64,000 nucleotides of DNA from NCBI GenBank assembly GCA_934675625.1, contig CAKURH010000002.1, forward strand, positions 5,471 to 69,470, in the 5' to 3' direction. The notes beneath the pieces were generated by a model. That model saw only the letters and a program-made list of their open reading frames with translations. It had not been told where the DNA came from and did not search any database. A program made the translations under genes and the position numbers. Below are positions 7,765-7,818 of the stretch, piece by piece (within the stretch, counting starts at the first letter, position 1; each line of letters opens with the position of its first letter). This stretch comes from an uncultured Kiritimatiellota bacterium. GTDB lineage: Bacteria > Verrucomicrobiota > Kiritimatiellia > RFP12 > UBA1067.

Positions 7765-7818
7765 CCTTTCTAGTTGTTCTAGCCGTTCCAGAAGTTCTAG
7801 TGATTCTAGGACTTCTAG
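7765..7818 (-). repeat. 6 x 9-nt phased tandem repeat CTAGAANNN in the groES-groEL spacer
   Basis: Minus-strand read: CTAGAAGTC CTAGAATCA CTAGAACTT CTGGAACGG CTAGAACAA CTAGAAAGG. The array ends 9 nt before the groEL ATG. Confidence 0.9.

Follow-up and report, generated by a model that had tools for sequence, protein, structure and literature searches.

Phased CTAG nonamer arrays between the chaperone genes of a Kiritimatiellota bacterium: a fast-changing class of intercistronic repeats with predicted stem-loops

Why should a perfectly phased 9-nt repeat occupy the spacers of a chaperone operon? The question is raised by a 64,000-nucleotide stretch of DNA from an uncultured Kiritimatiellota bacterium (contig CAKURH010000002.1; this whole stretch is the window in what follows), in which the 80-nt spacer between groES and groEL contains six units of the form CTAGAA-NNN at 7765-7818. 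A first-pass annotation, made from the letters alone, had described this array exactly as we find it. Here we determined its anatomy, its predicted RNA folding, its fate in closely related operons, and its distribution in public genomes. The array is best read as a nonamer variant, with conserved heads and variable tails, of the short tandem intergenic arrays of the STRR and TAACTGA type. As the mechanism at this locus we tentatively favour an intercistronic stem-loop that would uncouple the neighbouring cistrons, a reading that leads the field but that we would not yet call probable.

On the minus strand the groES-groEL spacer reads TAA-ACAACCGGTTCGTGTCT-(CTAGAAGTC)(CTAGAATCA)(CTAGAACTT)(CTGGAACGG)(CTAGAACAA)(CTAGAAAGG)-CAATCTAAA-ATG, the last codon being the groEL start. 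Unit 4, with CTGGAA, is the sole head deviation among the six. The same architecture recurs in the dnaK-groES spacer, as had been claimed, with seven CTAG-phased units: CTAGCCGTT, CGAGTCTCC, CTAGAGGTT, CTAGGGAGA, CTAGGGCGA, CTAGAGCAT, and CTAGAAACA. Here unit 2 has the head CGAG, and the 3' end of the spacer is a conserved A-rich leader, AAAAAAAAGGAAAAAACAAAAC, followed by the ATG. A third array had been proposed between rpoB and rpoC. Four loose 9-nt units can be read there (CTGGAATCG, CGAGAGCAA, CTCGAACAA, and CTAGAACCG), but they hold a single CTAG, and the rpoB-rpoC spacers of four relatives (78-92% RpoC identity) are 24-39 nt long and contain no array or repeats. The spacer of the window folds with z = -2.9, and its array is possibly decayed. 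The two chaperone-spacer arrays are solid, and the rpoB-rpoC array is marginal. Since the same arrays occur, identical, in four independent metagenome assemblies (loci L001-L003 and L006), they are not an assembly artefact.

The phasing is not random. With a GC content of 66.5%, the window contains 17 CTAGs where a second-order Markov model expects 50, and no palindromic tetramer is more depleted. The two chaperone spacers account for 11 of the 17 and the rpoB-rpoC spacer for one; the remaining five (at 125, 1841, 5277, 20281, and 61986) agree with the "about five" that the first-pass annotation had seen by eye. The pattern CTAG-N5-CTAG-N5-CTAG, with up to one mismatch, has nine matches, all within the two chaperone spacers, against an expectation of 0.01 from 100 dinucleotide shuffles. 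A looser head, C[TG]NG[AG] at period 9, forms three-unit runs at 14 other places in the window, mostly coding, and is therefore unspecific.

All RNA structures described here are predictions. The groES-groEL spacer has a minimum free energy (MFE) of -23.6 kcal/mol, compared with -12.8 +/- 2.9 for 200 shuffles (z = -3.8), none of which folded as well. In the predicted stem, unit 1 (UCUAGAAGU) pairs with units 3-4 (ACUUCUGGA), where the deviant CTGG forms one G.U pair. The unit 1 tail, AAG(U), is paired to the CUU in unit 3, and the heads of units 2 and 3 form an inner CUAG-CUAG pairing. Units 5-6 and the A-rich AAAGG tail are left largely unpaired before the groEL ATG. The core of the dnaK-groES fold is an inverted repeat, AGUCUCCCUAGA-GGU-UCUAGGGAGACU, at 8182-8208; the MFE is -33.3 kcal/mol over 111 nt (z = -4.2, again with 0 of 200 shuffles as good) and -32.6 for the 105-nt spacer. 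Here too the A-rich stretch with AAAGG is predicted to stay largely open before the start codon.

By sequence scan, neither chaperone spacer contains a promoter-like or terminator-like site. A hairpin followed by a U-tract is absent from both, as the stems run into AGGGCGAC... and AACUAGAAAGG..., and a canonical intrinsic terminator stands only after groEL, so the arrays would form the untranslated interior of one dnaK-groES-groEL transcript. Judging from this operon anatomy, they are probably transcribed. The arrays are not themselves intrinsic terminators, as their stems lack the following U-tract, unlike the groEL hairpin with its U7. Across 7700-8300, Rfam in E-value mode (E up to 10) returned only noise, with E of at least 3; at the gathering score its only hits in the whole window were a tRNA and an AdoCbl-II riboswitch, neither of them in this region.

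Related operons showed that the array is both inherited and rapidly exchanged. Loci L019, L020, and L022 have groES genes with 93-95% nucleotide identity to that of the window, and groEL genes with 94% (L019 and L020). Their groES-groEL spacers contain 4-8 units of CTAGAA(C)NN at a 9-nt period with changed tails, and the complementary AAG/CTT tails are likewise kept. Orthologous CTAG arrays keep the UCUAGAAG...CUUCUAGA pairing, with units gained or lost in the loop. The first-pass annotation had described an invariant head and a free tail; the heads are indeed near-invariant, but the tails are not wholly free, in that the AAG(U)/CUU pairing is kept in orthologs. In L020, L022, L025, and L026 the dnaK-groES spacer forms a CTAG nonamer hairpin of -37 to -41 kcal/mol.

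Elsewhere the cassette itself has been replaced. Locus L004 is 96% identical to the window in dnaK, 98.4% in groES, and 99.5% in groEL, and its spacers contain ATTCGAnn 8-mers in one case and a purine/pyrimidine-armed hairpin in the other, with zero CTAG. Within the L019-L026 group (groES 97-100% and groEL 99-100% identical), at least five cassette types alternate. Loci L011, L012, and L016 have (TTAGGTGG)n...(CTACCAAA)n arms of variable copy number, and L013, L015, L017, and L018 retain only a 53-nt spacer remnant. Presence, absence, and copy number are polymorphic among loci whose groES genes are 98-100% identical. An alignment of orthologous spacers had been suggested as a check, with head and period expected to persist while tails drift; L019, L020, and L022 behave in this way, but near-identical operons also contain unrelated spacers.

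Locus L006 has a mosaic structure: its identity to the window-type locus L001 is 100% only from the first spacer to about nt 600 of groEL (L001 vs L006, coordinates 2896-3950); outside this tract dnaK is 84% and distal groEL 85% identical, and the flanking genes are unrelated. Recombination therefore moves spacer-bearing segments. Near-identical dnaK-groES-groEL operons also lie in different gene neighbourhoods, as the flanks of L001, L004, L005, and L006 show. Together with the mosaic, this points to several operon copies per genome, homogenised by gene conversion, or to exchange between species. In L022, two different groES 3' ends and cassettes are joined across a run of N (2768-3123), which looks like a scaffolding error from identical coding DNA with different spacers. 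Contigs that encode the GroES of the window are often short, with 101 of 235 index blocks containing only contigs below 2 kb, which fits assembly breaks at repeats.

The exchanged cassettes are equivalent in their predicted structure. Folding was predicted for 28 distinct spacer variants, taken from operons whose coding identity is 86-100%, and nearly every cassette gave a large stem-loop beginning within a few nt of the stop codon, with MFE values from -17 to -69 kcal/mol. Values of z ranged from about -1 (the weakest two) to -6.7, most lying below -2, and in most variants a short unpaired A-rich tail follows the stem-loop. The stem-forming types include CTAG 9-mers, TCGA 8-mers, the TTAGGTGG/CTACCAAA 8-mers, purine/pyrimidine arms, and GC-rich hairpins; only the minimal variants of 50-53 nt (L013 and L021) have no hairpin. 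One GC hairpin shows a compensatory change between strains (GGGGGAG..CTCCCCC vs GGGGAAG..CTTCCCC). In these models it is structure, not sequence, that the spacer cassettes have in common.

The array is not confined to this lineage. When one genome per species was scanned for exact CTAGAA-N3-CTAGAA-N3-CTAGAA, there were at least 120 matches, where about 17 are expected by chance in 596 Gb (an arithmetic estimate that assumes uniform base composition). The genome-wide pattern search that the first-pass annotation had proposed is thereby borne out in its expectation that arrays are abundant elsewhere, here with the stricter CTAGAA pattern in place of its loose one. At least 84 matches are in Bacteroidota, mostly Prevotellaceae and other gut and rumen Bacteroidales, including cultured, array-rich isolates such as Prevotella merdae Marseille-P4119, Prevotellamassilia timonensis, and Prevotella sp. 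tc2-28, and at least 17 are in the PVC group (Kiritimatiellae, Victivallales/Lentisphaeria, and Verrucomicrobia). Among the matches listed, few came from other phyla, and these were mostly coding Leu-Glu repeats; most were non-coding head-plus-tail arrays, and 16 genomes matched at two separate loci. In viral contigs, nearly all listed matches were coding repeats in low-GC giant viruses and phages, with no evidence of phage use.

In 112 non-coding arrays, the CTAG-to-CTAG spacing is 9 nt in 536 of 566 steps (95%). The unit logo is C-T-A-G-A(.88)-A(.78)-N-N-T(.57), with the palindrome TCTAGA as its core. Position 9 is T in 57% of units, compared with 24-30% T at positions 7-8, so that the palindrome is wider than the search imposed, and only positions 1-5 (and 9) are conserved. 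Interior head variants number six in 65 arrays. Arrays have 3-20 units in a smoothly falling distribution with no preferred number; within an array 79% of linkers are distinct on average, and 16% of adjacent linkers are identical. Outside arrays the observed-to-expected (O/E) ratio of CTAG is 0.36, which differs from the spacers as the first-pass annotation had anticipated, and two-thirds of all CTAGs in these loci, which were ascertained by the CTAGAA pattern, lie inside arrays.

By crude open reading frame (ORF) calls on the fetched loci, 62 arrays lie between co-directional genes, 42 in sense and 20 in antisense orientation; among about 80 arrays, 13-15 are in convergent and three in divergent contexts. 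Many begin directly at the stop codon of the preceding gene or a few nt from it. The genes adjoining 65 arrays share no common Pfam family and show no functional enrichment. Terminators near arrays, found in only seven cases and confounded by bidirectional terminators, were not used as evidence. One array, in a metagenome-assembled genome (MAG) of Candidatus Equimonas faecalis (Bacteroidaceae; L098, 2053-2104), lies in the groES-groEL spacer and reads CTAGAATCT CTAGAATCT CTAGAAAAT. This same position in another phylum may hint at a preference for highly expressed operons, and is one case in about 100 arrays.

The CTAG nonamers also keep company with other repeats. The same loci contain head-plus-tail arrays of period 7 (44), 8 (44), and 9 (178), with many different heads. 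Metagenome contigs searched by GroES, a sample unbiased for arrays, gave distant relatives only (at most 89% identical), and in distant PVC relatives ascertained by groES alone, heptamer arrays such as CTAGTSG, CTCGAAA, GAACCCW, and TAGTNGN flank groES. One such array stands by groES in L147 (1528-1580). In L148, (GCTAGTS)7 is inverted with (ACTAGCG)4 about 500 nt away (2549-2600 and 3055-3085), so that a CTAG head also occurs in heptamers; L166 has an inverted pair of (CTGAATK)4 with (ATTCAGM)5 (2326-2455). We found no description of CTAG nonamer arrays in the full-text literature, most subscription journals being beyond reach and this absence being no proof. The class is widespread and fast-changing, and apparently undescribed.

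How might such an array act? In the mechanism we favour, the array would grow and shrink by whole 9-nt units, presumably through replication slippage, and would act at the RNA level, through structure and not exact sequence. Units 1-4 would fold back in the mRNA, with the palindromic CUAG pairing head to head and AAGU pairing with ACUU, into a stem-loop of about -24 kcal/mol that begins 8 nt past the end of groES. Units 5-6 and the AAAGG tail would be left largely open for ribosome entry at groEL, and the dnaK-groES spacer would act likewise through its perfect 12-bp stem. Like REP elements or puf-type hairpins, these U-less stem-loops could block 3' exonucleases or scanning endonucleases, or could be processing sites, and the outcome would be that the stability and yield of the neighbouring cistrons are uncoupled. 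A palindromic head allows pairing between any two units, whatever the register, and this may be why CTAG is retained. That arrays lie mostly in co-directional, transcribed spacers is counted in favour of the stem-loop. In addition, repeat families that differ in period (7, 8, or 9) and in head share genomes and even spacers, which makes a general cause, structural or mutational, more likely than a single dedicated binding protein. The first-pass annotation had listed an RNase processing or stabiliser element among its alternatives, and this comes close to our reading, as both spacers and nearly every cassette are predicted to fold into a stem-loop after the stop codon.

Several observations weigh against the stem-loop. 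Sense and antisense folding of the 28 variants do not differ (Wilcoxon p = 0.79), and the spacer hairpins are mostly Watson-Crick palindromes with no sense-strand advantage. Head variants for a comparison of G.U strand asymmetry are few (CTGG 8 vs CCAG 6, TTAG 3 vs CTAA 3), and neither the folding nor this comparison appears to discriminate RNA from DNA as the active form. In 66 arrays from other genomes, mirror complementarity of the tails is at chance level (mean z = 0.04), so long fold-back stems are particular to the cassettes of this lineage; for the class as a whole, pairing would be limited to the heads, which weakens the structural argument. Arrays in general do fold better than shuffles (median z = -3.7), but in part trivially, because shuffling destroys the CTAG palindromes. 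The hairpin-less spacers of the close relatives L013 and L021 indicate that the element is dispensable. Finally, near-invariant heads at a strict 9-nt spacing seem more precise than a hairpin alone needs.

One alternative, unlikely though we consider it, is that the (T)CTAG(A) nonamer arrays are cis-elements of an undescribed genome-wide system in gut and rumen Bacteroidota and PVC bacteria (Kiritimatiellae and Lentisphaerae/Victivallales). An oligomerising nucleic-acid-binding protein would read one palindromic head per 9 nt, on untranslated spacer RNA or gene-end DNA, and would set the relative output of the cistrons. CTAG would be purged elsewhere because it is a signal, and the patchy distribution would reflect horizontal transfer of the reader.

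Also unlikely, and differing in that it assigns the array no role, is that it is functionless or selfish hypermutable DNA, a by-product of slippage or template switching in highly transcribed untranslated spacers that is harmless there and is shuffled by recombination. Much of the turnover described above fits: the presence/absence and copy-number polymorphism, the mosaic tract of L006 relative to L001, the many unrelated repeat families, and the lack of functional enrichment. Filling of spacers from the stop codon on, with divergent promoter regions spared, is also what would be expected of DNA that persists only where it is harmless. Neutral decay, however, should strike heads and tails alike, whereas the heads are near-invariant and the tails near-random, and the conserved part is the very word that is otherwise avoided. 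Nor would it account for unrelated cassettes converging on a stem-loop with an open ribosome-binding tail, or for the compensatory changes in the GC hairpin.

Rather unlikely is a platform for an RNA-binding protein, in which an oligomerising or multi-domain protein (S1, a cold-shock protein, an RRM protein, or other) would cooperatively coat single-stranded CUAGAA heads, (CUAGAANNN)n, placed 9 nt apart, and would modulate translation or decay of the neighbouring cistrons. Conserved heads with free tails that lack mirror complementarity, strict spacing, avoidance of CTAG elsewhere, and the twofold excess of CTAGAA on the sense strand of transcribed spacers are all consistent with it. A like proposal exists for TAACTGA repeats, for which S1, Csp, and CsrA have been proposed as candidate readers but are unproven (PMC4679880). 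The first-pass annotation had favoured a ring-shaped regulator in the manner of TRAP or HutP that sets cistron ratios. This form of the idea fails on period, number, position, and conservation: the unit number of 3-20 without preferred stoichiometry rejects a protein of fixed size (a TRAP 11-mer or a HutP hexamer), the genes at 65 arrays have no shared function, and the arrays are not leader or attenuator elements. Against any RNA platform, operons that are nearly identical have unrelated cassettes in place of the array or lack it, base pairing is predicted for part of the array, and the palindromic core TCTAGA is unexpected for single-strand recognition. The many other repeat families in the same genomes would each need their own reader.

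The array could also act as DNA. Symmetric small dimers could sit on double-stranded TCTAGA cores, (TCTAGANNN)n, spaced 9 bp apart, as a cooperative filament at gene ends; tandem short repeats of this kind are recognised by MetJ (metboxes of 8 bp), by omega (heptads of 7 bp), and by TrpR (a CTAG every 8 bp). Candidates would be a ribbon-helix-helix protein of the MetJ/omega kind, a TrpR-like protein, a nucleoid-associated protein, or gyrase, as at BIME repeats. The extension of the palindrome beyond the search pattern, the weak orientation bias relative to transcription, the Watson-Crick hairpins without sense-strand advantage, and the counter-selection of CTAG elsewhere are in keeping with this. 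We nevertheless consider it improbable: sites lie within operons and 3' regions and seldom in divergent promoter regions, there is no regulon and no candidate protein was identified, near-identical operons turn the array over rapidly, and the same spacers also harbour families of period 7 and 8 whose heads are not palindromic.

A heat-shock-specific operator can be dismissed, as the genes at 65 arrays share no Pfam family and sister operons do without the motif. Repeated 9-bp target-site duplications of a transposon seem unlikely on reasoning only: a palindrome of even length cannot be centred in a duplication of 9 bp, and bacteria seldom show excision footprints.

The features of the operon are collected in Table 1. 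Its control region is probable and is assigned from position: the GGGGTCTGTCCCCA copies are spaced 33-41 bp, and the sigma-54-like element, TGGCATGGAGTTTGCA, lies about 50 nt upstream of the dnaK ATG. The sigma-54 match alone is no rarer than chance (about one expected). The dnaK-groES-groEL operon may be a heat-shock operon controlled by an enhancer-binding protein. The CIRCE/HrcA operator, TTAGCACTC-N9-GAGTGCTAA, has no match in the window even at three mismatches. The 14-mer GGGGTCTGTCCCCA occurs ten times in the window with up to two mismatches, against 0.27 expected, and sites of this type are also found at 26758-26771, at 27009-27065 (a cluster of three), and at 50152-50165. Between an upstream 243-aa ORF and the control region, at 10326-10363 (minus strand), is a perfect palindrome with a 17-bp stem, AAAGTGTGACATTCTGT-CGCG-ACAGAATGTCACACTTT, followed by CTGTTTTT, which is probably the terminator of the upstream gene.

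Table 1 Positions of the arrays, spacers, predicted stem-loops, and genes in the window.
Feature	Position	Strand	Basis or remark
Six-unit 9-nt array CTAGAA-NNN, groES-groEL spacer	7765..7818	-	Direct reading and phase scan
groES-groEL intercistronic spacer, 80 nt	7756..7835	-	ORF coordinates
Predicted stem-loop, groES-groEL spacer	7776..7828	-	GUUC..GUC of spacer and units 1-4
Seven-unit 9-nt array CTAG(R)(R)NNN, dnaK-groES spacer	8157..8219	-	Direct reading, phase scan, enrichment
dnaK-groES intercistronic spacer, 105 nt	8124..8228	-	Direct reading and comparison with relatives
Predicted stem-loop, dnaK-groES spacer	8171..8219	-	Core is a 12-bp perfect inverted repeat
Weak four-unit 9-nt array, rpoB-rpoC spacer, one CTAG	43419..43454	-	Phase scan
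dnaK, first gene of the operon	8229..10157	-	ORF; orthologous gene has Pfam HSP70
groES	7836..8123	-	100% identical to P0001 (Cpn10)
groEL	6121..7755	-	ORF; ortholog has Cpn60_TCP1
Canonical intrinsic terminator 3' of groEL	6062..6091	-	GGGGCGUCCC-UUCG-GGGACGUCC, then U7; sequence reading and palindrome scan
Probable operon control region	10207..10314	-	Three perfect GGGGTCTGTCCCCA, then sigma-54-like TGGCAT-N5-TTGCA

The closest named relatives of the RpoC are from Kiritimatiellae MAGs (89-92% identity), and about 200 contigs, many of them from metagenomes of the human gut, encode an identical GroES. Several long ORFs have an extended -10 box (TGnTATAAT, often TTTGGTATAAT) 6-9 nt before their ATG, at 57437-57454, 61095-61113, and 62011-62030 on the plus strand and at 38040-38058, 27985-28003, and 25306-25323 on the minus strand. 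With boxes so close to the ATG, the organism probably makes many leaderless mRNAs; the operon-internal groES, groEL, and rpoC instead have A-rich leaders with AAGG or GGAG. The AdoCbl-II (cobalamin) riboswitch, at 51221-51293 on the minus strand (39.9 bits; gathering score 36.5), overlaps the called 5' end of a 693-aa minus-strand ORF (49225-51306) that by eye resembles a TonB-dependent outer-membrane receptor. If this ORF truly starts further in, the riboswitch sits just upstream of the gene. About 960 nt upstream of rpoB (47389-48349, minus strand) contain no ORF with the high GC content at third codon positions typical of the genome, and rplJ and rplL do not adjoin rpoB, which is an unusual rpoBC arrangement.

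Should a protein read the heads, or a defined RNA structure depend on them, the arrays would represent a common and overlooked layer of control within operons. The hosts (Prevotella, Bacteroidales, and Kiritimatiellae) dominate gut and rumen communities; to our knowledge their post-transcriptional regulation is poorly known, and classical Shine-Dalgarno initiation and Hfq/CsrA-type regulators are largely lacking. Near-identical chaperone operons that differ only in their spacer cassette are a natural experiment on the DnaK:GroES:GroEL ratio. The arrays are also copy-number-variable markers for strain typing, and they can break assemblies and mislead scaffolding, as apparently in L022. Even without a function they would be informative about mutation, as CTAG-headed nonamers expand specifically where DNA is transcribed but not translated, in two phyla, and the same word is purged from other DNA.

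Among known systems, the MetJ metboxes, omega heptads, and TrpR operator share with the arrays short palindromic or direct units of 7-9 bp placed head to tail, and TrpR half-sites contain CTAG. Those operators, however, have 2-10 units and lie in the promoters of defined regulons, whereas the arrays described here avoid divergent promoter regions and flank functionally unrelated genes. The (G/U)AG sites of TRAP and the UAG sites of HutP are likewise repeated short UAG-containing cores with non-conserved spacers between them. TRAP sites are 11 triplets at a period of 5-6 nt, and HutP sites come as two sets of three at a period of 7 nt; both lie in 5' leaders where they control a terminator, and their number is set by ring size and conserved with the operon. 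In contrast, the arrays have a period of 9 and a free number of units, are intercistronic or 3', have no terminator, and are not conserved between near-identical operons.

The REP and BIME elements of enterobacteria are transcribed extragenic sites between cistrons or after the last gene, rare at promoters, whose stem-loops protect upstream mRNA and whose presence varies between strains. The arrays share this location, being intercistronic or 3' in the co-directional, convergent, and divergent counts from crude ORF calls given above. They differ from REPs in being phased tandem 9-mers, as REPs are dispersed, imperfect palindromes of about 35 nt that have a conserved sequence and are mobilised by RAYT transposases.

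TAACTGA arrays occur in Beggiatoaceae, Cyanobacteria, and a few Bacteroidetes (MacGregor 2015, PMC4679880). Like the CTAG arrays, they cross phyla, are intergenic, lie mostly in forward orientation near start codons, and show no functional pattern downstream; in both, the spacers of close relatives are shorter and repeat-free, and contigs often break in the repeats. TAACTGA is, however, a heptamer that is conserved over its whole length, is not palindromic, and overlaps with the region of ribosome binding, whereas the nonamers have free tails, begin at the upstream stop codon or directly behind it, and are followed by a distinct A-rich tail for ribosome binding.

The STRR heptamers between hupS and hupL form hairpins, and a role in transcript stability or translational coupling has been suggested for them (PMC2670836). 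As in heterocystous cyanobacteria, where STRRs are found, the units here are short, tandem, and placed in intergenic or intercistronic spacers, with several families per genome; the arrays are often inverted and hairpin-capable, and heptamers of this kind flank groES in distant PVC relatives. At least three head-to-tail units in non-coding DNA are typical of the class, and the chaperone spacers have six and seven. There are many loci and families (two strong arrays and one weak in 64 kb, with periods of 7, 8, and 9), and gain and loss are rapid, with close relatives lacking the array or having another copy number. The whole unit is not conserved, however, and the copies are not near-perfect; what is conserved is a 4-6 nt palindromic head (CTAG/TCTAGA), and the hosts are gut and rumen Bacteroidota and Kiritimatiellae/Lentisphaerae, not cyanobacteria. 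With a period of 9 in place of the classical 7, the array is thus best regarded as a variant of the STRR/TAACTGA type.

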